From a virus (taxonomy: Duplodnaviria > Heunggongvirae > Uroviricota > Caudoviricetes), in IMG/VR virus record IMGVR_UViG_2545824709_000009: a DNA stretch of 14,941 bases, one strand, 5' to 3'. Position numbers and translations under genes: made by a program. The notes under the pieces were generated by a model. The model saw only the letters and a program-made list of their open reading frames with translations, made no database searches and was not told the origin of the DNA. Shown one piece after another: positions 1 to 14,679 of this stretch (its first letter is position 1; each line of letters opens with the position of its first letter).

Positions 1-1284
1 TTACTTCTTCGCCTCTGCAACCACTTTACTACCCACGCCGCGGTTATTGTATTCCCACATGCGGTTGTAGTTAGTGTCATTCAGATTGCGCTGTATTTCG
101 TCGTTATCATCTACGCTGCCGGTATTACCCGCAAACGGACGATTAGAGATCACCGCATCGGCCCACGGTTTAGCCGTGTTAAAACCTTCGTTGATGGCGC
201 TATCACGGATCACCACCTGACCGTTGGTATTGGCATCAACATCCAGCGAGCGGCCCAGTTGCGCCACGCCATCACCGGAAGCATTGAAACGGCTGTTTAC
301 AGCGAGGAAACCGTAGTAAATGTTGGACAGCGTTGCCGGTGCAAACACATACGCTTCTTGCTGAGTACGTGAGTTCACCACGCGGAATTCGGTGTTATCG
401 AACACCACTGCGCCGCGACCAGAAACGATATCCACATCCCCTTCAATGTAGCTGTTGGTCACCAGCGTACGCGGCTGACGATTCGTTTCCAGACGGTTCT
501 GCACACCGCTGTTGGTGACAAAGAAGGTGTTCTGACGACCGAGAATGTTCACGTTGTTAATCTGTACCTGGTCACCATCAGTACGCAGTGCCACCGCCGG
601 ATGGTTACCCGCATCTACGCTATCGCCCAGCGTGTTTTCGATGGTCAGGTTTTGCAGTTGCAGGCCATTGTTTTGTGACCAGAAGACCGCTGAACAGAGA
701 ACACCGATACTGTTGCTGCGTTTGCTCTGGCAGCTATCGTACATATACCACGCTGGTTTACCTGGCATATATTTGCCGCGCGGGTTGACGTCGTGACGCC
801 AGTCGGCAGGGCTCATGCCCCCATCAAGGGAAAGCCCAATCTTCACATCAATCGGTTTTTCACCTGTACCGTACAGAGTAATTCCACCCGGAGCGGCAGG
901 AACATATACCGTTCCCTGATACTCACCTGGCATCACGGCAATATACTGGCGCTTGTTGGTACGCTTGATAATTGCCGCATCTACCGCCGCCTGAATCGTG
1001 GTATGCGTTACACCTTGAGTACCCGCCGGGCCGACAACAAAGTCAGGTTGCGCAGGCAGGGTAATCGGGGAAGGATTCCACGCTGCAGCACCTGGTGTCA
1101 GGGATGCAAAATAGTGTTGAGCATCGAAATTCTGCGCTTCTTTTGCCGACAGAATCGGGCGAGAAGAGGTACCAGGCGCGGTTTGATCAGAAGGACGTTG
1201 ATCGGGTGGTGTTGAGCTACAGGCGGTCAGCGTCACGCCAAAAGCCAATGCCAGCGCCAGACGGGAAACTGAAAATGTGTTCAC
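1..1284 (-). CDS. ybhC: Outer-membrane lipoprotein YbhC (pectinesterase-like / acyl-CoA thioesterase family), host gene flanking the lambda attachment site
   Basis: 427-aa minus-strand ORF with an N-terminal signal peptide and lipobox (LTLTAC SS). Recognised from memory as E. coli YbhC, the gene next to lambda attB. Confidence 0.9.
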   Translation of the reverse strand: MNTFSVSRLALALAFGVTLTACSSTPPDQRPSDQTAPGTSSRPILSAKEAQNFDAQHYFASLTPGAAAWNPSPITLPAQPDFVVGPAGTQGVTHTTIQAAVDAAIIKRTNKRQYIAVMPGEYQGTVYVPAAPGGITLYGTGEKPIDVKIGLSLDGGMSPADWRHDVNPRGKYMPGKPAWYMYDSCQSKRSNSIGVLCSAVFWSQNNGLQLQNLTIENTLGDSVDAGNHPAVALRTDGDQVQINNVNILGRQNTFFVTNSGVQNRLETNRQPRTLVTNSYIEGDVDIVSGRGAVVFDNTEFRVVNSRTQQEAYVFAPATLSNIYYGFLAVNSRFNASGDGVAQLGRSLDVDANTNGQVVIRDSAINEGFNTAKPWADAVISNRPFAGNTGSVDDNDEIQRNLNDTNYNRMWEYNNRGVGSKVVAEAKK

Positions 1285-2733: not shown

Positions 2734-3134
2734 TTGGTGTTCTTTCAGTTCTTCAATTCGAATATTGGTTACGTCTGCATGTGCTATCTGCGCCCACAGC
2801 ATTCAGTGGTCATAGCAGTCGCTGATGTTCTCGGCTTCGATAACTCTGTTGAATGGTTCTCCATTCCATTCACCTGTGACTCGGAAGTGCATTTATCATC
2901 TCCATAAAACAAAACCCGCCGTAGCGAGTTCAGATAAAAGAAATCCTCGTCAGTGCGAGGATGCTGTTCATTGCTGCTATACACTTTTTTGCTCTCAACG
3001 TAAGCGGTAGCCCATTCTGTTGGGTTGGTGCAGTTGCTTTTAGGAAATGCTATTTACCCCTTAAATGTCGGCTGAAAGAGCTAAAATCCATGCAAAAAAT
3101 TTACGCAATTTTGTGTATTATTGTGCAGTAAGTA

Positions 3135-3737
3135 ATGAGCTATTTTCTGCGCAAAAAATGGATGGTAAATTTGTCCGGGTCAGGAAAAATTTTATGGGCG
3201 CTAAACATGAAAAAAGATTCGTATCCTTATTTGATTTGCATGACAGTTTCAGGGCTGATCTTTATTTTCCTTTTCTTCTGGTGGCGGGCAGATATCTACA
3301 GGGTCACGTTTCTTAATCAGAGTATATCCCACTATTACATTCTGTTTAGCATGGGAATAGCTTTTCTGTTATCTCTGTTTTGGGTTAAGAAGGGGATAGT
3401 AAAACAAAGAGGCTGGAAGAGTCTGTCAGCATACCTTAAGGTTTATGCAGGGATGTGCATATTTGCAGGATTTTTTCTGATTATACCCCTTACGACACTA
3501 ACTTATTTTTTGCCTGGAGAGACATCGTCTTATGTTGCACCGTATCGGTATACTTCCGGTAGTTCAAAAAGTTGTTCTGGAGCTGAGGTGGATGACCCCG
3601 ATCTACATGAGAATATTCGCATTTGCTATCCGTATGGCAATTATGAGTACGATAATATTATCTATGTTGAAAAGAAAATTAATATATTAGGTGCGGTAGT
3701 GACATATGCACAGACCGCGCGTGATGATACTGAATGA
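3135..3737 (+). CDS. Small polytopic membrane protein of unknown family; candidate lysogen-expressed accessory (exclusion/defence) gene
   Basis: Uninterrupted 200-codon ORF on the strand opposite the early-left operon. It sits in an AT-rich segment (about 38% GC by eye against about 50% in flanking phage genes). Three hydrophobic helices (LICMTVSGLIFIFLFFWW, YYILFSMGIAFLLSLFWV, GMCIFAGFFLIIPLTTL) with a very basic loop KKGIVKQRGWK, then an approximately 70-aa hydrophilic C-terminal tail containing two Cys. Start uncertain: in-frame ATGs at 3135, 3162 and 3207, none with a strong SD. Confidence 0.7.
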   Translation: MSYFLRKKWMVNLSGSGKILWALNMKKDSYPYLICMTVSGLIFIFLFFWWRADIYRVTFLNQSISHYYILFSMGIAFLLSLFWVKKGIVKQRGWKSLSAYLKVYAGMCIFAGFFLIIPLTTLTYFLPGETSSYVAPYRYTSGSSKSCSGAEVDDPDLHENIRICYPYGNYEYDNIIYVEKKINILGAVVTYAQTARDDTE

Positions 3738-3771
3738 TATAGTATATAGCGGGCAAGTTTTAGTTAATTTA

Positions 3772-3809
3772 TCGAGGTAATATAATTTACCTCGACTCGT
3801 TTGTTCTGG
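3772..3809 (+). terminator. Putative hairpin terminator downstream of the membrane-protein gene
   Basis: Perfect 9-bp stem TCGAGGTAA / TTACCTCGA with 6-nt loop TATAAT, followed by a moderately T-rich tract (ctcgtttgttctgg). Confidence 0.4.
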
Positions 3810-3947
3810 TATTAATATTTCGCTTTACGACCGATTTTTATCTGATGATATCATGCGGTTTTCATATACTGACTTACTGTCTTTTCTCCGTTAGCGATTT
3901 TCTCCTGCTCAGCGATGATTTTATCTTTGGCTTCTAGTTAATTTCGC

Positions 3948-4169
3948 TCACTTCGAACCTCTCTGTTTACTGATAAGCTCCAGATCCTCCTGGCAACTTG
4001 CACAAGTCCGACAACCCTGAACGACCAGGCGTCTTCGTTCATCTATCGGATCGCCACACTCACAACAATGAGTGGCAGATATAGCCTGGTGGTTCAGGCG
4101 GCGCATTTTTATTGCTGTGTTGCGCTGTAATTCTTCAATTTCTGATGCTGAATCAATGATGTCTGCCAT
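3948..4169 (-). CDS. TraR/DksA-family C4 zinc-finger protein (lambda orf73-like)
   Basis: 73-aa ORF with CxxC-x17-CxxC (CCECGDPIDERRRLVVQGCRTCASCQ), the pattern of TraR-like RNA-polymerase secondary-channel binders. Position matches lambda orf73 as I recall it. Confidence 0.8.
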   Translation of the reverse strand: MADIIDSASEIEELQRNTAIKMRRLNHQAISATHCCECGDPIDERRRLVVQGCRTCASCQEDLELISKQRGSK

Positions 4170-4223
4170 CTTCCATTAATCCCTGAATTGTTGGTTAATA
4201 CGCTTGAGGGTGAATGCGAATAA

Positions 4224-4246
4224 TAAAAAAGGAGCCTGTAGCTCCC
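4224..4246 (-). terminator. Putative intrinsic terminator in the early-left operon
   Basis: Minus-strand reading gives GGAGC-tacag-GCTCC followed by TTTTTTATT (plus strand aaaaaaggagcctgtagctcc). Confidence 0.5.
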
Positions 4247-4267
4247 TGATGATTTTGCTTTTCATGT

Positions 4268-4579
4268 TCATCGTTCCTTAAAGACGCCGTTTAACATGCC
4301 GATTGCCAGGCTTAAATGAGTCGGTGTGAATCCCATCAGCGTTACCGTTTCGCGGTGCTTCTTCAGTACGCTACGGCAAATGTCATCGACGTTTTTATCC
4401 GGAAACTGCTGTCTGGCTTTTTTGATTTCAGAATTAGCCTGACGGGCAATGCTGCGAAGGGCGTTTTCCTGCTGAGGTGTCATTGAACAAGTCCCATGTC
4501 GGCAAGCATAAGCACACAGAATATGAAGCCCGCTGCCAGAAAAATGCATTCCGTGGTTGTCATACCTGGTCTCTCTCAT
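4268..4579 (-). CDS. Hypothetical early-left protein (lambda orf61-like region, 103 codons here)
   Basis: Minus-strand ORF co-directional with exo and overlapping the stop of the upstream orf63-like ORF. The 5' part aligns positionally with lambda orf61, but the ORF runs longer than 61 codons; the true start could be internal (MTPQQENAL...). Confidence 0.55.
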   Translation of the reverse strand: MRETRYDNHGMHFSGSGLHILCAYACRHGTCSMTPQQENALRSIARQANSEIKKARQQFPDKNVDDICRSVLKKHRETVTLMGFTPTHLSLAIGMLNGVFKER

Positions 4580-4751
4580 CTGCTTCTGCTTTCGCCACCA
4601 TCATTTCCAGCTTTTGTGAAAGGGATGCGGCTAACGTATGAAATTCTTCGTCTGTTTCTACTGGTATTGGCACAAACCTGACTCCAATTTGAGCGAGGCT
4701 ATGTGCCATCTCGATACTCGTTCTTAACTCAACGGGAGATGCTTTGTGCAT
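4560..4751 (-). CDS. Hypothetical protein, lambda orf63-like
   Basis: 63-aa ORF with the same length and relative position to exo as lambda orf63. Confidence 0.75.
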   Translation of the reverse strand: MHKASPVELRTSIEMAHSLAQIGVRFVPIPVETDEEFHTLAASLSQKLEMMVAKAEADERDQV

Positions 4752-4906
4752 ACAGCTCCCCGTTTATTATTTATCTCCTCAGCCAGCCGCTGTGCTTTCA
4801 GGGGATTTCGGATAACAGAAAGGCCGGGAAATACCCAGCCTCGCTTCGTAACGGAGTAGACGAAAGTGATCGTGCCTACGCGGATATTATCGTGAGGATG
4901 TTTCAT
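4724..4906 (-). CDS. Hypothetical protein, lambda orf60a-like
   Basis: 60-aa ORF ([10 protein letters not shown]...) whose start overlaps the exo stop. The six-frame track begins two codons upstream (MAM, at 4912); the ATG at 4906 gives the lambda-like length. Confidence 0.7.
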
Positions 4907-5583
4907 CGCCATTGCTCCCCAAATACAAAACCAATTTCAGCCAGTGCCTCGTCCATTTTTTCGATGAACTCCGGCACCATCTCGTCAAAACTCGCCATGT
5001 AATTTTCATCCCGCTCAACCACGACATAATGCAGGCCTTCACGCTTCATTCGTGGGTCATAGTTGGCAAAGTACCAGGCATCTTTTCGCGTCACCCACAT
5101 GCTGTACTGCACCTGGGCCATGTAAGCTGACTTTATGGCCTCGAAACCACCGAGCCGGAATTTCATGAAATCCCGGGAGGTAAACGGGCATTTCAGTTCA
5201 AGGCCGTTGCCGTCACTGCATAAACCATCGGGAGAGCAGGCGGTGCGCATACTTTCGTCGCGATAGATGATCGGGGATTCAGTAACATTCACGCCGGAAG
5301 TAAACTCAAACAGGGCTCTGGCGTCGTTCTCGTACTGTTTTCCCCAGGCCAGCGCCTTAGCATTAACTTCCGGAGCCACACCGGTGCAAACCTCAGCCAG
5401 CAGGGTGTGGAAGTAGGACATTTTCATGTCAGGCCACTTCTTTCCTGAGCGGGGCTTTGCTATCACGTTGTGAACTTCTGAAGCGGTGATGACGCCGAGC
5501 CGTAATTTGTGCCATGCATCATCCCCCTGTTCGACAGCTCTCACGTCGATCCCGGTACGCTGCAGGATAATGTCCGGTGTCAT
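4903..5583 (-). CDS. exo: Lambda exonuclease (Red-alpha, YqaJ-type 5'-3' exonuclease)
   Basis: 226-aa [43 protein letters not shown]...FGEQWR, recognised as near-identical to lambda Exo; overlaps the bet stop. Confidence 0.97.
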
Positions 5584-6365
5584 GCTGCCACCTTCTGCTC
5601 AGTGGCTTTCTGTTTCAGGAATCCAAGAGCTTTCACTGCTTCGGCCTGTGTCAGTTCTGACGATGCGCGAATGTCGCGGCGAAATATCTGGGAACAGAGC
5701 GGCAATAAGTCGTCATCCCATGTTTTATCCAGGGCGATCAGCAGAGTGTTAATCTCCTGCATGGTTTCATCGTTAACCGGAGTGATGTCGCGTTCCGGCT
5801 GACGTTCTGCAGTGTATGCAGTATTTTCGACAATGCGCTCGGCTTCATCCTTGTCATAGATACCAGCAAATCCGAAGGCCAGACGGGCACACTGAATCAT
5901 GGCTTTATGCCGTAACATCCGTTTGGGATGCGACTGCCACGGCCCCGTAATTTCTCTGCCTTCGCGAGTTTTGAATGGTTCGCGGCGGCATTCATCCATC
6001 CATTCGGTAACGCAGATCGGATGATTACGGTCCTTGCGGTAAATCCGGCATGTACAGGATTCATTGTCCTGCTCAAAGTCCATGCCATCAAACTGCTGGT
6101 TTTCATTGATGATGCGGGACCAGCCATCAACGCCCACCACCGGAACGATGCCGTTCTGCTTATCAGGGAAGGCGTAAATTTCTTTCGTCCACGGATTAAG
6201 GCCGTACTGGTTGGCGACGATCAACAATGCGATGAACTGCGCATCGCTGGCATCACCTTTAAATGCCGTCTGGCGAAGAGTGGTGATCAGTTCCTGTGGG
6301 TCGACAGAATCCATGCCGACACGTTCAGCCAGCTTCCCTGCCAGCGTTGCGAGTGCTGTACTCAT
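5580..6365 (-). CDS. bet: Bet (Red-beta single-strand annealing protein, RecT-like)
   Basis: 261-aa [62 protein letters not shown]..., recognised as lambda Bet. Confidence 0.97.
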
Positions 6366-6370
6366 CCGTT

Positions 6371-6667
6371 TTATACCTCTGAATCAATATCAACCTGGTG
6401 GCGGGCAATAGTTTCAACCATGTACCGTATGTGTTCTGCCATGCGTTCCTGAAACTCAACATCGTCATCAAACGCACGGGTAATGGCTTTTTTGCTGGCC
6501 CCGTGGCGTTGCAAATGATCGATGCATAGCGATTCAAACAGGTGCTGGGGCAGGCCTTTTTCCATGTCGTCTGCCAGTTCTGCCTCTTTCTCTTCACGGG
6601 CGATCTGCTGGTAGTGACGCGCCCAGCTCTGAGCCTCAAGACGATCCTGAATGTAATAAGCGTTCAT
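6371..6667 (-). CDS. gam: Gam (RecBCD inhibitor), short form
   Basis: 98-aa [63 protein letters not shown]..., recognised as lambda GamS with a CAGGAG RBS. The upstream in-frame sequence resembles the N-terminal extension of long Gam only loosely. Confidence 0.95.
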
Positions 6668-6743
6668 GGCTGAACTCCTGAAAATGGCTGTGAAAATATC
6701 GCCCGCGAAATGCCAGGCTGATTAGGAAAACAGGAAAGGGGGG

Positions 6744-7034
6744 TTAGTGATTCAGGCCGTTACCGCGTCCGTCGAGAAAAACTTCCACGAGCAAATCACG
6801 GGTATAAGTGCGCTCGATGCCGCGATGCAGATAAAGCCGTCCGCGTAAATTAGCTGATGCAGTCCAGGTACCATCTTTGTGTTTGACCAGCATTCCTGGC
6901 ATGACCGCACCTCGATTAACGGTCTGCGTTCCGTAATGTTGATGAACCATAAAAACTCCTGCCCGTAAGCTGGGCTGCTGAACATATAAAGACTTCTGCG
7001 CGTATTCAGGCGGTGGATGGCCGCCGGTTGTCAT
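6744..7034 (-). CDS. Hypothetical early-left protein at the kil/cIII position (first ORF downstream of pL)
   Basis: 96-codon ORF from the track. An internal ATG at 6950 (MVHQHYGTQTVNRG...) is preceded by a strong AGGAG RBS and may be the real start, giving 68 aa. Its stop sits where lambda kil ends. No family recognised, and no arginine-rich motif of N type. Confidence 0.5.
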   Translation of the reverse strand: MTTGGHPPPEYAQKSLYVQQPSLRAGVFMVHQHYGTQTVNRGAVMPGMLVKHKDGTWTASANLRGRLYLHRGIERTYTRDLLVEVFLDGRGNGLNH

Positions 7035-7204
7035 AACTAAGCCGCCTCGTTGAAGCGACTAAGGTATGAAATGTTGAGTTAATTTCAGCTGGTCACACCG
7101 ACGTTCACGCGTCCGTTTCACCCCTCGCACTCCCCGAAGCCTGCTGAAATTCAAACTGCGGATCTAAGCGGTCATCGCAACGGTGAATCAGGTAGTTGCC
7201 GTAT

Positions 7205-7290
7205 CGTTGTGTTGTTGCGATGAACTTATTTAAAACTATAGTTGTTTTATCGTCAACAACAAAAGTTGTTTTATTGGTTGTTTTAGATAT
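7205..7290 (-). promoter_or_regulatory. Putative OL operators and pL promoter
   Basis: Palindrome GTTGTTttatcgtcAACAAC (7241-7260) overlapping a -35 TTGACG (minus strand, 7251-7256), with a TTTTAAAT -10-like element about 16-17 bp downstream (7228-7235). Further GTTGTTTTA half-sites at 7265 and 7277. The module is nearly a copy of the OR/pR module at 8277-8312. Confidence 0.5.
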
Positions 7291-7396
7291 AACTGGTTGT
7301 ATTTAGGATGGATTTATTTTGTGACTTGAATCGCATAGCGATAACTGAAGCGAGGTTATGGTGGTTTTTTTAACGGTGTGTGTGATGAGGGGAGGG

Positions 7397-7424
7397 CAAA
7401 AGAAAACCCGGCACGGTGACCGGG
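7397..7424 (-). terminator. Putative intrinsic terminator downstream of cI
   Basis: Minus-strand reading gives CCCGG-tcaccgtg-CCGGG followed by TTTTCTTTTG, about 120 nt past the cI stop. Confidence 0.5.
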
Positions 7425-7545
7425 ATTCTTACGCCGTTAGGTAAAGATATTATTGCGGTGGCTTAATATTACTACCTAGAGCAAAGATAGGAATTAGTTC
7501 TTTACTGAATGAGCACAATGCCCAGTTGATAATTTTTAATTGGTA

Positions 7546-8235
7546 CTACCCATGCTTCCTATATGTCTGCGGCATGCTCCCAATAACCTTACCGAAGATG
7601 AACACCCGGTTCATCTCGTCTTTCTCGATCGGGTCCCACGGTGAGTAGCTTTTGTTATCAGAGATGACCAGCAGCTTATTCTTCATCATTTGCAGGCGCT
7701 TTACATGGGCTGTGTCGTCGTACAGAAACGCATAGATACCATCACCGTCGAAAGATTTAACTGTGATATCAACGAACAGCAGATCACCTGGTTCGATCGT
7801 TCCTGACATGCTGTCACCACGCACGTTAATGATGCGGATATTTTCCGCCTTCCTACCATCGAACATGTGACGAGCATCGTCAAACGAGTACTCAACCGAG
7901 CGTAGAACTTCTACAAACTCACGGTTGATGACTCCCGGCCCAGCACTGACTTCTATATCAAGAACGTCAATCTTGAAGTATTTGGAATGGCTGACAGTTG
8001 ATTGTATTGGTTGCACTGTACTGTCTGACATATTTCCAACGCCAGAAGATAACCATTCTGCGCGCACACCCAAAGCGTTCGCGATCTCCACGATTTTAGT
8101 TGTTTGATTAGCTTTCCCTGTTTCGATTTTCTGAATAGCAGCCTGGCTAACCCCGACCAAATCCCCAAGCGCCTTTTGTGTAAGGCCTCGCGCTAATCTG
8201 GCTTCTTTAAGTCTTTCTGAGAGTGTTGTTTTCAT
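7546..8235 (-). CDS. cI: Prophage repressor CI (N-terminal HTH, C-terminal S24 LexA-like autopeptidase domain)
   Basis: ORF with start chosen at MKTTLSERLKEARLARGLTQKALGDLVGVSQAAIQKIETGK (HTH, XRE-type); C-terminal domain carries the GDSM serine motif and a downstream Lys (AHVKRL). The track's upstream extension (to 8301) runs through the operator region and is unlikely. Divergent from cro across an operator region. Confidence 0.9.
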   Translation of the reverse strand: MKTTLSERLKEARLARGLTQKALGDLVGVSQAAIQKIETGKANQTTKIVEIANALGVRAEWLSSGVGNMSDSTVQPIQSTVSHSKYFKIDVLDIEVSAGPGVINREFVEVLRSVEYSFDDARHMFDGRKAENIRIINVRGDSMSGTIEPGDLLFVDITVKSFDGDGIYAFLYDDTAHVKRLQMMKNKLLVISDNKSYSPWDPIEKDEMNRVFIFGKVIGSMPQTYRKHG

Positions 8236-8339
8236 AGTCCAAATGTACAACCAAGGTTTTATTCCATCAAACGAAAATGGTTGTTGACTAAAAACAACCA
8301 TAGTTTTAATCTTGATTCAAATTAACCACGGAGGTTGTT
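8236..8339. promoter_or_regulatory. OR operator region with divergent pRM/pR promoters
   Basis: 25-bp palindrome ATGGTTGTTgactaaaAACAACCAT (8277-8301) containing -35 TTGACT (8284-8289), with a TTTTAAT-like -10 about 16 bp downstream. Extra half-sites ACAACC (about 8243) and GGTTGTT (8333-8339). Lies between divergent cI and cro. Confidence 0.6.
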
Positions 8340-8570
8340 ATGAACCCAGCTATCAAAACAGCGATCAATATCGTTGGTTCACAAAAGAAACTGGGCGCTG
8401 CTTGCGAAGTTTCACAGCAGGCCGTCTATAAGTGGCTTCACAACAAAGCAAAGGTATCCCCTGAACATGTCGGCAGCATTGTTACGGCTACTGGTGGAGT
8501 AGTGAAGGCATACCAGATTCGCCCGGATCTTCCGAAGTTGTTTCCACACACCGAAAAGAACGCAGCTTAA
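8340..8570 (+). CDS. cro: Cro-like HTH regulator
   Basis: 76-aa ORF directly right of OR and divergent from cI; small HTH-like protein (…QKKLGAACEVSQQAVYKWLHNK…). Confidence 0.8.
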   Translation: MNPAIKTAINIVGSQKKLGAACEVSQQAVYKWLHNKAKVSPEHVGSIVTATGGVVKAYQIRPDLPKLFPHTEKNAA

Positions 8571-8582
8571 ATTTCCATTTCA

Positions 8583-8595
8583 CGCTCTTTAACAA
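8583..8595 (+). promoter_or_regulatory. boxA-like element (nutR-type) in the pR transcript
   Basis: CGCTCTTTAACAA, a 12/13 match to the boxA consensus as I recall it (TGCTCTTTAACAA), 13 nt after the cro stop. No convincing boxB hairpin follows. Confidence 0.45.
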
Positions 8596-8639
8596 TAAGC
8601 AATCAACTTAACAGTCAATTCAAACTAAAGGAGTCAATT

Positions 8640-9179
8640 ATGCAACCACTTACATACCAACAGACTAGCGGATTTAGCCCGACTGCGGTGATAAATCGTT
8701 CTCAAACAAAACAGGTGCCAGGCCACGAAAAAATCCGTGATGCCGTCCGCGCCTGGTCGGCTGTAGATAATCAGGATGTCGTTGCCACACTCATTGTGAA
8801 TGAGTATCGGGAGCAGGGCGGCGGCACCATCGATTTCCCTGATGATGTCAGCCGTGCACGCCAGAAGCTGTTCCGCTTCCTCGATAACAAATTCGATTCT
8901 GAAAAATACCGAAATAATGTGCGTGAACTGACCCCGGCAATTCTGGCGGTACTACCGCTGGAATATCGCGGTTACCTGGTTGAGCAGGATAGCTTCATGG
9001 CTAGGTTGGCTGAAATGGAAAAGGAACTCAGTGAGGCAAAACAGGCTGTCATTCTCAACGCACCACGCCACCAGAAACTGAAGGAAATTAGTGAAGGTAT
9101 TGTGTCGATGTTTCGTGTGGACCCAGATCTGGCTGGTCCATTGATGGCGATGGTTACTACCATGCTGGGGGCGATATGA
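8640..9179 (+). CDS. CII-position regulatory protein, probably YdaT family (the CII analogue of Rac-type immunity regions)
   Basis: 179-aa ORF with a good RBS (aaggag) between cro and O. Motifs NEYREQGGGTIDFPDD and LTPAILAVLPLEYRGYL resemble my recollection of YdaT-like proteins. Not similar to lambda CII. Confidence 0.6.
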   Translation: MQPLTYQQTSGFSPTAVINRSQTKQVPGHEKIRDAVRAWSAVDNQDVVATLIVNEYREQGGGTIDFPDDVSRARQKLFRFLDNKFDSEKYRNNVRELTPAILAVLPLEYRGYLVEQDSFMARLAEMEKELSEAKQAVILNAPRHQKLKEISEGIVSMFRVDPDLAGPLMAMVTTMLGAI

Positions 9180-9265
9180 CAGGTTCAGAAATGGCGAAAG
9201 CCGGTCTGCTGGAACAGAACCGACTTTCAGGTGCAAATCGTAACACACTCATTGCGGGAGGAATT

Positions 9266-10195
9266 ATGGCAAACACTGCTGAGATATTCAATTTTCCAGT
9301 GCCGGATGCGGCACAAAAGGAGCCGCGCGTGGCAGATCTCGATGATGGTTATACGCGCATTGCAAATGAGTTGCTGGAAGCTGTGATGCTGGCCGGATTA
9401 ACACAGCACCAGCTTCTGGTCTTCCTGGCTGTCATGCGCAAAACATATGGCTTTAATAAAAAACTGGATTGGGTGAGCAACGAGCAACTTTCCGAGTTGA
9501 CCGGGATATTGCCGCACAAGTGTTCTGCTGCAAAAAGTGTTCTGGTAAAGCGTGGGATTTTTATTCAGAGTGGGCGGAATATCGGCATTAATAATGTGGT
9601 CAGTGAATGGTCAACATTACCCGAATCAGGTAAGAAAAATAAAGTTTACCTGAAAGAGGTAAATTTACCTGAATCAGGTAAGAAAAGTTTACCCAAATCA
9701 GGTAAAGGCGTTTACCCGAATCAGGTAAACACAAAAGACAAACTAACAAAAGACAATATAAAACCTTTTTCGTCCGAGAATTCTGGCGAATCCTCTGACC
9801 AGCCAGAAAACGACTTTCCTTTGGAGAAACTGGATGCTGCAATTCAGAGCGGCAGCAAGTGGGGGACAGCAGAAGACCTGACCGCCGCAGAGTGGATGTT
9901 TAACATGGTGAAGACCATCGCGCCCTCAGCCAGAAAACCGAATTTTGCAGGGTGGGCTAACGATATCCGCCTGATGCGTGAACGTGACGGACGTAACCAC
10001 CGCGACATGTGCGTGCTGTTCCGCTGGGCATGCCAGGACAACTTCTGGTCCGGTAACGTGCTGAGTCCGGCCAAACTCCGCGACAAGTGGACCCAACTCG
10101 AAATCAACCGTAACAAGCAACAGGCTGGCGTGACAACCGGAAAATCAAAACTCGACCTGACAAACACTGACTGGATTTACGGGGTGGATTTATGA
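9266..10195 (+). CDS. O: Replication initiator O (lambda O type, with divergent N-terminal iteron-binding domain)
   Basis: Start chosen at the ATG after GGAGG (MANTAEIFNFPVPD...), aligning with the lambda O N-terminus; the track's longer ORF starts at 9176. The C-terminal half (from ...SSENSGESSDQPENDFPLEKLDAAIQSG...) is recognised as near-identical to lambda O. Contains the iterons. Confidence 0.9.
   Translation: MANTAEIFNFPVPDAAQKEPRVADLDDGYTRIANELLEAVMLAGLTQHQLLVFLAVMRKTYGFNKKLDWVSNEQLSELTGILPHKCSAAKSVLVKRGIFIQSGRNIGINNVVSEWSTLPESGKKNKVYLKEVNLPESGKKSLPKSGKGVYPNQVNTKDKLTKDNIKPFSSENSGESSDQPENDFPLEKLDAAIQSGSKWGTAEDLTAAEWMFNMVKTIAPSARKPNFAGWANDIRLMRERDGRNHRDMCVLFRWACQDNFWSGNVLSPAKLRDKWTQLEINRNKQQAGVTTGKSKLDLTNTDWIYGVDL
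9617..9770. repeat. ori: Replication origin: five ~19-bp palindromic iterons plus AT-rich region inside O
   Basis: TTACCCGAATCAGGTAA (9617), TTACCTGAAAGAGGTAA (9646, variant), TTACCTGAATCAGGTAA (9665), TTACCCAAATCAGGTAA (9689), TTACCCGAATCAGGTAA (9713), followed by acaaaagacaaactaacaaaagacaatataaaacc. Same architecture as lambda ori but different iteron sequence. Confidence 0.8.
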
Positions 10196-10893
10196 AAAAC
10201 ATCGCCGCACAGATGGTTAACTTTGACCGTGAGCAGATGCGCCGGATCGCCAACAACATGCCGGAACAGTACGACGAAAAGCCGCAGGTACAGCAGGTAG
10301 CGCAGATCATCAACGGTGTGTTCAGCCAGTTACTGGCAACTTTCCCGGCGAGCCTGGCTAACCGTGACCAGAATGAACTGAACGAAATCCGCCGCCAGTG
10401 GGTTCTGGCTTTCTGGGAAAACGGGATCACCACAATGGAACAGGTTAACGCTGGAATGCGCGTAGCCCGTCGGCAGAATCGACCATTCCTGCCATCACCC
10501 GGGCAGTTTGTCGCCTGGTGCCGGGAAGAAGCATCCGTTACCGCCGGGCTGCCAAACGCCAGCGAGCTGGTTGATATGGTTTACGAGTATTGCCGGAAGC
10601 GCGGGCTGTATCCGGATGCAGAGTCTTATCCGTGGAAATCAAACGCGCACTACTGGCTGGTTACCAACCTGTATCAGAACATGCGGGCCAATGCGTTGAC
10701 TGACGCGGAATTACGGCGCAAGGCTGCCGATGAACTGTCCTGTATGACCGCACGAATTAACCGTGGTGAGGCTATACCTGAACCAGTAAAACAACTTCCT
10801 GTCATGGGCGGTAGACCTCTAAATCGTGCACAGGCTCTGGCGAAGATCGCAGAAATCAAAGCTAAGTTTGGGCTGAAAGGAGCAAGGGTATGA
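10192..10893 (+). CDS. P: Replication protein P (DnaB helicase loader)
   Basis: 233-aa ORF MKNIAAQMVNFDREQMRRIANNMPEQYDEKPQVQQVAQIINGVF..., recognised as near-identical to lambda P; start overlaps the O stop. Confidence 0.97.
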   Translation: MKNIAAQMVNFDREQMRRIANNMPEQYDEKPQVQQVAQIINGVFSQLLATFPASLANRDQNELNEIRRQWVLAFWENGITTMEQVNAGMRVARRQNRPFLPSPGQFVAWCREEASVTAGLPNASELVDMVYEYCRKRGLYPDAESYPWKSNAHYWLVTNLYQNMRANALTDAELRRKAADELSCMTARINRGEAIPEPVKQLPVMGGRPLNRAQALAKIAEIKAKFGLKGARV

Positions 10894-11192
10894 CGGGCAA
10901 AGAGGCAATTATTCATTACCTGGGGACTCATAAGAAATTCTGTGCGCAGGACGTTGCCGCGGTAACAGGCGCAACGGTAACCAGCATAAATCAGGCTGCG
11001 GCTAAAATGGCGCGGGCAGGAATCCTGGTCGTTGATGGTAAGGTCTGGCGAACGGTGTATTATCGGTTCGCTACCAGAGAAGAATGGGAAGGAAAGGTGA
11101 GCACGAATTTGATTTTTAAGGAGTGTCGCCAGAGTGCCGCGATGAAACGGGTATTGAGGGTATATAAAAGAACATCAATGGGTACACAATGA
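10890..11192 (+). CDS. ren: Ren (Rex exclusion-relief protein homologue)
   Basis: 100-aa ORF MTGKEAIIHYLGTHKKFCAQDVAAVTGATVTSINQAAAKMARAG..., recognised as lambda/DLP12 Ren-like; overlaps the P stop. Confidence 0.9.
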   Translation: MTGKEAIIHYLGTHKKFCAQDVAAVTGATVTSINQAAAKMARAGILVVDGKVWRTVYYRFATREEWEGKVSTNLIFKECRQSAAMKRVLRVYKRTSMGTQ

Positions 11193-11259
11193 TGAAACAG
11201 GTGAGTTGAGTTCAAACTGTAGTACAATTCTCTCCAGTTTGAACAGGAAAGAATATGCT

Positions 11260-11592
11260 ATGAATCCTTATATTTATCTTGGTGGTGCAATACTTGCAGA
11301 GGTCATTGGTACAACCTTAATGAAGTTTTCAGAAGGTTTTACACGGTTATGGCCATCTGTTGGTACAATTATTTGTTATTGTGCATCATTCTGGTTATTA
11401 GCTCAGACGCTGGCTTATATTCCTACAGGGATTGCTTATGCTATCTGGTCAGGAGTCGGTATTGTCCTGATTAGCTTACTATCATGGGGATTTTTCGGCC
11501 AACGGTTGGACCTGCCAGCCATTATAGGCATGATGTTGATTTGTGCCGGTGTGTTGGTTATTAATTTATTGTCACGAAGCACACCACATTAA
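11260..11592 (+). CDS. emrE: SMR-family multidrug/quaternary-ammonium efflux transporter EmrE
   Basis: 110-aa protein from MNPYIYLGGAILAEVIGTTLMKFSEGFTRLWPSVGTIICYCASFWLLAQTL... with an AGGAAA RBS, recognised as EmrE. The track's upstream extension (from 11206) lacks support. Confidence 0.95.
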   Translation: MNPYIYLGGAILAEVIGTTLMKFSEGFTRLWPSVGTIICYCASFWLLAQTLAYIPTGIAYAIWSGVGIVLISLLSWGFFGQRLDLPAIIGMMLICAGVLVINLLSRSTPH

Positions 11593-11624
11593 AAATAATT
11601 TGTTTTTAAACGACTAAAATATGG

Positions 11625-11660
11625 AGGCTCGTATATTTATATGGGCCTCGTTTTATGCTT
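11625..11660 (+). terminator. Putative intrinsic terminator after emrE
   Basis: GAGGCTC ... GGGCCTC stem (one G-U pair, large loop) followed by GTTTTATGCTTTTT. Confidence 0.35.
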
Positions 11661-11847
11661 TTTGTTAATGTCTTTAGTTTTTATTCATTCTTTTGTGCTT
11701 TCAAGATTATGGTGTAAGAAAATTGCAATACGATTATTGTTGTATATTCAAGATAATGTGACCTTAATTGTCTTTTTAAATAAAAATTAAACAAAAATCA
11801 TATCTCACCACTAAGGTTTATAAAAGCATACTTTAGCAGGTGTCACC

Positions 11848-13374
11848 ATGAAAAAAGCCATAGCATATATGCGATTTTCATCACCAGGTCAGATGTCTGG
11901 TGATTCATTAAACCGCCAGAGAAGGCTTATTACTGAATGGCTAAAGGTAAATAGTGATTATTACCTTGATACCGTAACGTATGAAGATTTGGGGTTAAGC
12001 GCATTCAATGGAAAGCATGCACAATCAGGAGCTTTTTCGGAATTTTTAGATGCTATAGAACATGGTTATATATTGCCAGGGACTACATTGTTAGTTGAAA
12101 GTCTGGACAGACTTTCAAGAGAAAAAGTCGGTGAAGCGATTGAGCGTCTGAAATTGATTTTGAATCACGGTATTGATGTTATAACTCTTTGCGATAATAC
12201 AGTCTATAATATTGACTCATTGAATGAGCCATATTCATTAATAAAAGCCATACTTATAGCACAAAGGGCAAATGAAGAAAGCGAGATAAAGTCAAGTCGG
12301 GTTAAATTATCATGGAAGAAAAAACGGCAGGATGCACTGGAGTCAGGCACGATTATGACGGCGTCTTGTCCGAGATGGCTCTCATTGGATGACAAAAGAA
12401 CGGCTTTTGTTCCAGACCCCGACAGGGTGAAAACTATTGAGCTAATTTTTAAACTCAGGATGGAAAGGCGCTCATTGAATGCAATAGCCAAGTATTTAAA
12501 TGATCATGCTGTAAAGAATTTCTCAGGAAAAGAAAGTGCATGGGGACCTTCTGTAATTGAAAAATTATTAGCGAATAAAGCTCTGATAGGTATATGCGTA
12601 CCTTCATATCGTGCAAGAGGTAAAGGAATAAGTGAAATCGCTGGCTATTATCCCAGAGTCATATCAGATGATTTGTTTTACGCTGTGCAGGAAATTCGGT
12701 TGGCACCTTTTGGTATTAGCAATAGTAGCAAAAATCCTATGTTGATAAATCTACTTCGAACAGTTATGAAGTGCGAGGCTTGTGGTAATACCATGATTGT
12801 TCATGCGGTATCTGGAAGTTTGCATGGCTATTATGTTTGTCCGATGAGAAGACTGCATCGATGTGACAGGCCATCAATAAAGAGAGATTTGGTTGATTAT
12901 AATATCATTAATGAGTTGCTTTTTAATTGTAGTAAAATCCAACCAGTTGAAAACAAGAAAGATGCTAATGAAACTTTAGAGTTGAAAATTATTGAGCTCC
13001 AGATGAAAATTAATAATTTAATTGCTGCATTATCTGTTGCGCCTGAAGTTACCGCTATAGCAGAAAAAATCAGAGTATTAGATAAGGAATTACGAAGGGC
13101 TTCTGTATCATTAAAAACTTTGAAGAGTAAAGCGGTGAGTTCACTTGGTGATTTTCATGCTATTGACTTAACCAGTAAAAATGGGCGAGAGCTATGTCGT
13201 ACACTTGCCTATAAAACATTCGAAAAAATCATAATCAATACAGATAATAAAACCTGTGATATCTATTTTATGAATGGCATTGTTTTTAAACACTATCCTT
13301 TAATGAAAACAATATCTGCCCAGCAGGCGATAAGTACTCTCAAATATATGGTTGATGGTGAGGTTTATTTTTGA
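11848..13374 (+). CDS. ybcK: Large serine recombinase (YbcK-like; resolvase catalytic domain, recombinase domain, zinc ribbon, coiled coil)
   Basis: 508-aa ORF. N-terminal AYMRFSSPGQ motif (catalytic Ser), Cys cluster CEACGN...YYVCPM...C, and a C-terminal predicted coiled coil (LELKIIELQMKINNLIAALS). Very AT-rich. Length and gene order ren-emrE-ybcK match the DLP12 arrangement from memory. Confidence 0.85.
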   Translation: MKKAIAYMRFSSPGQMSGDSLNRQRRLITEWLKVNSDYYLDTVTYEDLGLSAFNGKHAQSGAFSEFLDAIEHGYILPGTTLLVESLDRLSREKVGEAIERLKLILNHGIDVITLCDNTVYNIDSLNEPYSLIKAILIAQRANEESEIKSSRVKLSWKKKRQDALESGTIMTASCPRWLSLDDKRTAFVPDPDRVKTIELIFKLRMERRSLNAIAKYLNDHAVKNFSGKESAWGPSVIEKLLANKALIGICVPSYRARGKGISEIAGYYPRVISDDLFYAVQEIRLAPFGISNSSKNPMLINLLRTVMKCEACGNTMIVHAVSGSLHGYYVCPMRRLHRCDRPSIKRDLVDYNIINELLFNCSKIQPVENKKDANETLELKIIELQMKINNLIAALSVAPEVTAIAEKIRVLDKELRRASVSLKTLKSKAVSSLGDFHAIDLTSKNGRELCRTLAYKTFEKIIINTDNKTCDIYFMNGIVFKHYPLMKTISAQQAISTLKYMVDGEVYF

Positions 13375-13485
13375 GTAATAATCACTTTTTCAACCGTGCT
13401 ATAGTAAGAAAGTTAGGTAAGTACAATAAAATTATCTATCCTGAACGAAGCGTCCTGAGCTATGGTTTTACTATAGGGACTGCCA

Positions 13486-13809
13486 ATGGATGCTGGCGTT
13501 CTCGTTCTAGCAGTTCAACAATCCCCAATCACAAAACAATTCACTGATAACGAACTTTGCACACTCGCCTGGTTATGGCGAGCAGGGAATGTGATGTTAA
13601 TTACCTACCAGAACGTTACTCCTCTTCTTCAGGTTGCGGAGCATCGTGAAGCTGGTCGCTTCACTTCTATCGAGCAAGAATATCCCCAGATACTCAACAG
13701 AGCGCGAGCAATCCTCGTCCGAGAAACGGCACATGTAAAACTTCAGCCGTGGCAGGATGATAAGTGGAGTCGAGTATTGCCGCATTTACCTCAGAATCTG
13801 TTTCAATAA
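13486..13809 (+). CDS. Hypothetical protein (107 aa), unknown function
   Basis: ORF with mid-range GC and a weak RBS; no recognisable motifs. Could be a gene fragment. Confidence 0.35.
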   Translation: MDAGVLVLAVQQSPITKQFTDNELCTLAWLWRAGNVMLITYQNVTPLLQVAEHREAGRFTSIEQEYPQILNRARAILVRETAHVKLQPWQDDKWSRVLPHLPQNLFQ

Positions 13810-13983: not shown

Positions 13984-14679
13984 ATGGACAATATTAATAA
14001 ACACGGGCTCTCAAGAAGAATACCTGAGACAATAAAACGTCAGATAAGGCAAAGGTGCGGCTTTGGCTGTGTAATTTGTGGATTTGGATTTTATGATTAT
14101 GAGCATTTTAAACCTGACTTCGTTGATGCCAAAGTACATGATCCGAATGGAATGACACTTCTTTGCTCCCAATGCAATCAAAAAAGAGCTCGTGGTAGAC
14201 TTTCAGCACAGACAGTGGAAATAGCTGACAGAAATCCCAAGTGCTTACAGGCTGGTTTTGCAAATGAAATGTTTGATTTTCATAATGAGCCTATAACAGT
14301 AAAATTTGCAGGAGTGACGTTTCATAACTGTCAAAATTTGATTGTAGTCAACGAACAACCCATTCTTTCTGTGAAACCTTCACCCATACCACATGGACCG
14401 ATGCTTTTATCAGGAATTTTCTGTAATTCTATTGGTAAGGAGACTTTACTGATAGATGAAAATGAATGGAAAGCTAAATCAGACAATTGGGATGTGGAGT
14501 GTACCGGCCCGCGTATAACAATACGACGTGGGCCAGGAGAGTTTGCCCTCGTTCTAAAAATGGAACCTCCAACAGGATTGATTGTTGAGCGTCTTGATAT
14601 GTTGTATGAAGGGGTCAGGATGAAAGGAGATAAAGATCTGCTGGAAGTTTTGAACCGCCCCGGGAATCCTGGAGACTAA
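13984..14679 (+). CDS. HNH-motif nuclease-like protein, 3' end probably truncated by IS insertion (last ~9 codons and stop come from IS sequence)
   Basis: N-terminal CVIC-x8-H-x13-N-x5-CSQC arrangement (residues ~29-64), typical of a zinc-bound HNH/HNN nuclease finger, plus an unrecognised ~150-aa C-terminal region. AT-rich. The ORF reads into the IS left inverted repeat that starts at 14651. Confidence 0.55.

Follow-up and report, generated by a model that had tools for sequence, protein, structure and literature searches.

The replication initiator O of phage lambda binds DNA through its N-terminus and the P protein through its C-terminus, with a flexible linker between the two (PMC6022878, PMC7466680). 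Hybrid O proteins from lambda-phi80 and lambda-82 hybrids are mentioned in a passage of PMC6022878 that cites Furth and Yates 1978 and Moore et al. 1979. In these classical hybrids the N-terminal part sets the origin and its iterons, the C-terminal part sets the P partner, and crossovers to the right of ori are functional. The same layout is found in the IMG/VR virus record IMGVR_UViG_2545824709_000009, a DNA of 14,941 nucleotides (nt) referred to here as the window, over whose full length all base-level coordinates run. The window contains an E. coli prophage, inserted beside ybhC at the attachment site of lambda. Unlike the classical hybrids, the O of this prophage does not stem from a laboratory cross but occurs naturally, and its five iterons (TTACCYGAATCAGGTAA) are not of the lambda, 82 or phi80 type. 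We consider it very likely that the window is a routine lambdoid mosaic, in which the arm from int to gam and the stretch with the C-terminal half of O, P and ren are lambda-type, while 6751-9769 comes from another, very common lineage and comprises at least four cassettes. The segment and the hybrid-O architecture are already known, and the allele combination is common.

The lambda genes int and xis, the arm of orf61, exo, bet and gam, the C-terminal half of O, P and ren are 94-99% identical to the window. With blastn, 1331-2962 aligns to lambda 27724-29355 at 98.7%, 3936-6750 to lambda 30380-33193 at 97.8%, and 9729-11165 to lambda 39119-40555 at 93.6%; lambda similarity stops at 11165, within the 3' end of ren. 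Between the last two blocks, 6751-9728 gives no blastn alignment to lambda even with 11-base words. This 3-kb segment corresponds to 5.9 kb of lambda containing kil, cIII, ea10, ral, sieB, N, rexAB, cI, cro, cII, the N-terminal half of O and four iterons, and unlike lambda it has no N, cIII or rex equivalents. An earlier note on this DNA had listed a Kil-position open reading frame (ORF), pL, cI, pR, cro, a CII-position gene, the O N-terminal domain and the iterons as the contents of the segment, and O C-terminal half, P and ren as lambda-type; both statements are borne out.

The identity profile against lambda is stepwise. At the left joint, the last 100 bases of the lambda-like flank are 96/101 identical and the next 100 only 52/110, which is the level of shuffled 100-mers (0.47 ± 0.02), so that identity there is random. 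The break falls at 6750/6751, on the kil side of gam and 83 bp past the gam start codon, and cuts the Kil-position ORF inside its last two codons. What the window has in common with lambda kil is limited to the terminal His codon, the stop and the downstream sequence. On the right, successive bins of about 100 bases rise from 59/105 through 85/100 to 95/100. The right BLAST edge at 9729 is the first base past the fifth iteron and equals lambda 39119, the first base past lambda iteron 4. Similarity resumes at exactly this base because the AT-rich element that follows is conserved in every origin type, and the joint itself lies further right, at 9759-9769 (see below). The sharp breakpoints proposed earlier are thus confirmed against a gradual profile, which was tested and not seen. 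The positions proposed for them, about 6700 and about 9740, missed the left joint by some 50 bp and the right one by 20-30 bp. Base-level resolution is reached at the left joint, and the right joint is resolved to about 11 nt.

The O gene is one intact plus-strand reading frame, encoding 309 amino acids (aa) from the ATG at 9266 (9266-10195), or 339 aa from an ATG at 9176 that overlaps the ydaT stop. It matches Pfam Phage_rep_O (PF04492, E 8.6e-34, residues 51-145 of the long ORF) and phrog_277 (E 5e-161); a sequence search of the PDB with O gave no match. On the opposite strand, a promoter-like site (TTGAAT, 17 nt spacer, TG-CATAAT) lies within 9197-9291 and overlaps the 9266 start, like lambda pO, which argues that O starts at 9266 and not at 9176. 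Past it stands a strong hairpin (9229-9197; fold z-score -2.7). Together, site and hairpin could specify an OOP-like antisense RNA.

When the two halves of O are compared separately at the protein level (N-terminal half, aa 1-154), their affinities diverge, and tblastn surveys agree. The N-terminal half is 46% and the C-terminal half 89% identical to lambda O. PhiR5_1, 4A7 and PhiR34_1 match the window in both halves (99-100% and 95-98%). Lambda, 933W and PhiR12_1 are close only in the C-terminal half (88-90%, against 39-46% in the N-terminal half). The O of Klebsiella phage RCIP0034 is 79% identical in the N-terminal half (81% at the nucleotide level) and has no match in the C-terminal half. 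The phi80-like HK225 reaches 40% and 45%, and HK97 40% in the N-terminal half with no match in the C-terminal half.

The five iterons occupy 9617-9728 on the plus strand, with starts at 9617, 9646, 9665, 9689 and 9712 in a repeat search. Their pattern TTACC-N7-GGTAA occurs at 5 sites (10 counted over both strands) against 0.06 expected by chance. RCIP0034 carries the same iteron type next to its similar N-terminal half and unrelated C-terminal half, upholding the earlier proposal that the O N-terminal domain and the iterons travel together. N-terminal halves at or below 46% identity go with different iterons, and this co-variation suggests that each O binds its own iterons specifically.

Behind the iterons lies an AT-rich origin element (9729-9769, plus strand) that aligns with those of lambda, 933W, HK97 and others. 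In an alignment of seven phages, five iteron types are each followed by the same ACACAAAAGACA...ACAAAAGA element. The AT-rich bases 9729-9765 were tried as a marker of the joint in these seven phages and rejected as non-diagnostic, as they match lambda at 28/37, RCIP0034 at 30/37 and HK97 at 28/37. Finer placement came from an IMG/VR scan with the AT-rich motif, which gave at least 120 contigs, to which five references were added. Across these contigs, the first 30 nt of the element (9729-9758) follow the iteron type, and lambda-type sequence begins with TCGTCCGAG at 9770. As the bases diagnostic of the iteron type end at 9758 and the lambda type begins at 9770, the joint is bracketed to 9759-9769. 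The earlier placement of the joint after the iterons and the AT-rich origin was therefore right in substance. The next 35 nt encode an acidic linker, SSENSGESSD, that is common even to HK225. From 9770 to 11165 on the plus strand extends the lambda-type block, with the O linker and C-terminal P-binding half, P and most of ren.

The contigs were clustered at 80% identity or more by the 130 nt upstream of the motif (iterons) and the 260 nt downstream (C-terminal half). Among the matches listed, the iteron type of the window (type 0 in our clustering) is joined to the lambda-type C-terminal half at least 30 times and to the RCIP0034-type C-terminal half at least 14 times. The lambda-type C-terminal half is in turn joined to at least three iteron-region clusters, namely that of the window, that of lambda, and the six-iteron arrangement of lambda iterons seen in 933W. 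Two other C-terminal types are each joined to at least 2-3 iteron types. Of about 135 phage records, a spread sample at 90-95% identity, carriers of the lambda-type C-terminal half match the window from 9729, and two from 9716 and 9719. The O gene thus combines two variable parts, the N-terminal domain with the iterons and the C-terminal domain, on either side of an AT-rich element and a linker that are both conserved, and this conserved middle is a recurrent joint.

By analogy with lambda, dimers of the O N-terminal domain would bind the five cognate iterons and stress and open the adjacent AT-rich element, and the lambda-type C-terminal half would recruit lambda-type P with DnaB. A hybrid O is viable because its N-domain/iteron and C-domain/P specificities flank a flexible linker. 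The AT-rich and linker island, conserved across origin types, is a likely substrate for homologous exchange, and the left joint at the kil stop codon may represent a gene-boundary joint kept by selection. A different mechanism, which we judge less likely, is that joints would form illegitimately and at random, only those at domain or gene boundaries would survive, and the AT-rich island would reflect functional constraint rather than a substrate. Indeed, the left joint has no shared island beyond one codon and the stop, the 11 nt at 9759-9769 (TAAAACCTTTT) fit neither the lambda nor the RCIP type, as expected of a novel joint, and the AT-rich element has a job of its own as an unwinding element (PMC7466680). 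However, in 11 of the 12 upstream clusters listed the last iteron lies between cores of 12 nt (ACACAAAAGACA) and 8 nt (ACAAAAGA), nine of these 11 having recognisable iteron arrays, and the 35-nt linker is common even to HK225. Together, cores and linker offer homology just where the joint recurs. This rival concerns the mechanism only.

The earlier note also held that the whole segment travels as one exchanged module. Comparison by BLAST with 4A7, PhiR68_2 and PhiR70_1 contradicts this. These phages share kil and the pL leader with the window (6751-7221), and are completely different across the left operator (OL) and pL (7222-7315). They share the region downstream of the cI stop, with its terminator-like hairpin (7316-7425/7504), and carry extra genes inserted at a cargo point (7425/7504-7545). 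Most of cI (7546-8102) is shared at about 90% nucleotide identity, and 8103-8638 is again completely different, covering cI aa 1-45 with the HTH_3 helix-turn-helix, the right operator (OR), cro and the spacer between cro and ydaT. From 8639 onward ydaT, O and P are shared at 96-97%. At the protein level, aa 46-229 of cI are nearly identical to the 4A7 protein and aa 1-45 differ. The cargo point between OL and the cI stop with its terminator (7425-7545) is empty in the window; relatives hold HipA/HipD (PhiR5_1), GevT (PhiR47_2), an ASCH-domain gene and another (4A7, D2), or other genes (PhiR68_2, PhiR70_1). On these alignments the 3-kb segment is best described as at least four independently reassorting cassettes, not one unit. 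Immunity specificity would sit in two short, non-contiguous, co-varying cassettes, one of 94 bp with OL and one of 536 bp with cI aa 1-45, OR and cro, from which the rest of the segment reassorts independently.

That one event exchanged a contiguous module from kil to the N-terminal half of O, and that this module is inherited as a unit, is accordingly improbable in our judgement. This view has in its favour that 6751-9728 is one unbroken block without similarity to lambda, and that six records carry the segment bar cargo insertions: PhiR34_1, IdasGreatGrand, PhiR47_2, PhiR5_1, PhiR26_1 and probably Turner. Coverage of the segment is 96-100% in five of the six, and the Turner match ends at the end of its record. 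About ten records, however (4A7, 4C10, 1W, 3W, PhiR68_2, PhiR70_1, PhiR30_1, Perceval and others), agree with the window in kil, the pL leader, the C-terminal part of cI, ydaT and O and bear different OL (7222-7315) and cI N-terminal domain/OR/cro (8103-8638) cassettes. The origin type also occurs in more E. coli genomes than the immunity core (2296 against 1508), and lambda is not the ancestor, which leaves "one event" undefined. Only because lambda served as the sole reference does the segment look like one module.

Still less probable, to the point of being hardly tenable, is the view that no recombination took place and that the N-terminal half of O, the iterons and the immunity genes simply diverged faster under diversifying selection for specificity. 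The N-terminal halves of O are indeed homologous, sharing a Pfam domain and 46% identity, and the iteron regions are similarly spaced, with A-rich centres. Against this, one or two bases suffice at the left joint for identity to drop from 95% to the random level, the flanks match lambda at 94-98%, and the codon differences in P are mostly synonymous (28, against 6 non-synonymous). The nearest relative of the N-terminal half, RCIP0034, has an unrelated C-terminal half, the nearest relatives of the C-terminal half have unrelated N-terminal halves, and cro, the CII-position gene and kil belong to families other than lambda's. That the mosaic is an assembly chimera or other artefact is least credible of all, since the arrangement recurs at 98.8-100% in dozens of independent complete genomes and several independently sequenced phages and O is one intact reading frame, even if the partial-genome record of the related phage D2 has a frameshifted, artefactual-looking O. 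D2 (OM475427, locus 7073-8094) had been considered as evidence that the O N-terminal domain can separate from its iterons and was rejected: its O is frameshifted and turns from the window type into 100% lambda in the middle of the N-terminal domain, upstream of lambda iterons. This O is probably an assembly or laboratory chimera.

Several points weigh against the mosaic reading with its homologous exchange and reassorting cassettes. The argument for homology-driven exchange at the hinge is its recurrence, which selection acting on rare illegitimate joints could also produce. The IMG/VR contigs were selected by pattern, and their proportions are not population estimates. Binding of O to the iterons and of cI to its operators is predicted from sequence. 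A consensus promoter scan picked up neither pL nor pR, whose hexamers are weak. The published YdaT operator TTGATT-N6-AATCAA (PMC9986795) was not found in the window above chance level; the scan gave only two-mismatch matches at chance frequency, one of them at 8312-8329 in the pR region.

The repressor of the segment, cI, is encoded on the minus strand (7546-8235; 229 aa from the ATG at 8235) and followed by a terminator-like hairpin at 7424-7407 on the same strand, found in a terminator scan. It has an HTH_3 domain (E 6.5e-13) and a Peptidase_S24 domain (E 1.9e-18), matches phrog_4 and phrog_6201, and bears the S24 motifs of the LexA/CI type, namely Ala-Gly (VSAGPG), GDSM and a downstream HVKR. 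These domains and motifs point to a LexA/CI-type, putatively SOS-cleavable repressor. An alternative ORF of 251 aa (756 nt) starts at the ATG at 8301, and this length is annotated in PhiR34_1 and PhiR5_1. That ATG lies within a 25-bp operator palindrome, ATGGTTGTTGACTAAAAACAACCAT, over the pR -35, and the 8235 start aligns with the annotated start of the 4A7 cI. The longer ORF is probably an over-extension, 8235 being the more plausible start.

Between cI and cro, the OR region (8236-8339) contains pR and presumably pRM, the palindrome at 8277-8301 and further ACAAC half-sites; AACAAC sites are found at 8225-8339. The Cro-position repressor (8340-8570, plus strand) is of the YdaS family (Pfam YdaS_toxin PF15943, E 4e-17; P22_Cro, 8e-5; phrog_35). 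Adjacent to it, the CII-position gene (8640-9179, plus strand, 179 aa) is of the YdaT family (YdaT_toxin PF06254, E 8.5e-30; phrog_163 'CII-like transcriptional activator', E 3.9e-67), so that YdaS_toxin and YdaT_toxin genes stand in the cro and cII positions. YdaT has been described as a functional equivalent of CII (PMC9986795). From these family assignments, the LexA-like cI and the YdaS-type Cro would compete at the ACAAC/GTTGT operators of OL and OR, and the YdaT-type protein would fill the CII role. The same order, a YdaS-family cro and then a YdaT-family CII-position gene upstream of the replication genes, characterizes the repressor/YdaS/YdaT switch module of the cryptic prophages Rac and CP-933P (PMC9986795, PMC8630535). 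In contrast to that module, the YdaT of the window is only distantly similar (E 0.002 against the CP-933P YdaT structure 8bt1), its repressor is LexA-like S24, and its replication genes are of the lambda O/P type.

Leftward of cI, the immunity-specific OL/pL cassette (7222-7315, minus strand) holds clustered AACAAC/GTTGTT half-sites, with five AACAAC sites across 7211-7282. A 19-nt stretch at 7230-7248 is an inverted copy of the pR core at 8291-8309 (95% complementary). The candidate pL and pR are placed by their position and by this copy common to OL and OR. The OL region (7204-7323) resembles the annotated O-L region of phi80 (1121-1239 of the phi80 locus) weakly, at 61%, but significantly. 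It is followed by a pL leader of about 185 nt (7035-7221, minus strand) without an N gene. Then comes a Kil-family ORF of 96 aa (6744-7034, minus strand; phrog_294 'Kil protein for bacterial septation inhibition', E 1.2e-38), which sits between pL and gam, directly upstream of gam, and is non-lambda at the DNA level. Its start, ATGACAACCGGCGGCCATCCACCG, is conserved in phi80 just past the phi80 N terminator, and together with its upstream hairpin it is 82% identical to the stretch just downstream of phi80 N.

Between pL and kil there is no N homologue, and that strand has no ORF of 40 aa or more; phi80 has its N gene at the equivalent place. The search for a boxA plus boxB nut site returned one perfect rrn-type boxA, CGCTCTTTAACAA, after cro (8583-8595) and without a boxB hairpin; it is missing from the shorter spacer of 4A7. 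At the sequence level, no similarity to the HK022 early region that would indicate a put-like RNA was found outside cI and cro, and the pL leader and the rightward operon share no element that could make a put-like pair. The leader is near-identical up to 7221 in 4A7 and PhiR70_1, phages of different immunity, and because of this conservation it may belong to cis-acting antitermination. Its folding is unremarkable (fold z-score only -1.3). On this reading the segment, which brings an N-less, put-less early region into a lambda-type backbone and is also carried by the complete phage genome PhiR34_1, would use the leader (7035-7221) or the boxA at 8583 as part of an undescribed cis-acting terminator bypass, a proposal that we regard as unlikely. 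Such phages may, alternatively, simply have no early terminators. The leader also contains a 31-aa ORF with a TTG start (7059-7154, minus strand), whose arginine-rich RGVKRTRERR recalls the RNA-binding motif of N proteins. It has no family match, and the same bases form a GC-rich hairpin, so the resemblance may be coincidence.

A close relative is PhiR34_1 (PV340559), deposited as a complete phage genome with E. coli K-12 MG1655 given as its host. It is 97.5% identical over 3974-13413, with the same kil, cI, cro, ydaT, O, P, ren, emrE-like gene and ybcK, and differs from the window in its integrase region. The whole segment 6751-9728 is present in it at 99.6%, and the segment occurs in at least five other phages. 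PhiR5_1, PhiR47_2 and others differ from the window by their defence cargo (HipA/HipD, GevT) between cI and OL. The 4A7 group is assigned to the genus Bievrevirus; 4A7, PhiR68_2 and PhiR70_1 differ in the OL and cI N-terminal domain/OR/cro cassettes. In E. coli K-12, the cryptic prophage DLP12 (exoD, peaD, renD, emrE, ylcJ, ybcK) is 94-96% identical to 10582-13413 from the 3' end of P to ybcK, and its exo fragment matches 4877-5182. DLP12 sits at argU and no longer has anything between exo and the middle of P; the whole segment is gone there, where the window shows the intact arrangement. From this pattern, DLP12 looks like a deleted relative of the window prophage.

The window starts with the E. 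coli gene ybhC (1-1284, minus strand), followed by int (1419-2489), xis, exo (4903-5583), bet (5580-6365) and gam (6371-6667, minus strand; Pfam Gam, E 3.6e-65). The lambda-type flank of the segment, 6371-6750 on the minus strand, consists of gam and the stretch upstream to the His codon and stop common with lambda kil. Beyond O lie P (10192-10893, plus strand; Phage_lambda_P PF06992, E 1e-61) and ren (10890-11192, plus strand), most of which falls inside the lambda-type block; 3' of ren, an emrE-like gene and a serine recombinase lead on to further genes. A second non-lambda patch, at 2963-3935, takes the place of lambda ea8.5/ea22 and is low in G+C (about 38%). It holds a plus-strand ORF of 200 aa (3135-3737) with a hydrophobic-looking sequence and no Pfam or PADLOC match. 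Past 11165 come an SMR/EmrE-type transporter and a large, YbcK-like serine recombinase, then a fragment of the P22 antirepressor C-terminal domain (13486-13809) and a 231-aa ORF without assigned family (13984-14679). The best-matching genomes lose their match to the window at about 14650. PADLOC found no defence matches among the accessory ORFs of the window, and an Rfam scan of the whole window at permissive thresholds had rliD as its sole match, at chance level (E 0.92).

The origin type is present in 2296 (about 42%) of 5426 complete E. coli genomes, the immunity core in 1508. In 78 complete genomes, 80% or more of the window can be found, in several of them at 99.8-100% identity. As a discovery the locus carries little weight; it confirms with coordinates the textbook modularity of lambdoid phages, in which the origin-recognition and P-recruiting halves of O are separable. 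For prophage typing and annotation, the non-lambda origin and immunity types of the window are far commoner in E. coli than those of lambda itself. The AT-rich and linker island in O can be annotated as a recurrent joint at which several iteron types meet several C-terminal and helicase-loader types, in phages of both Escherichia and Klebsiella.

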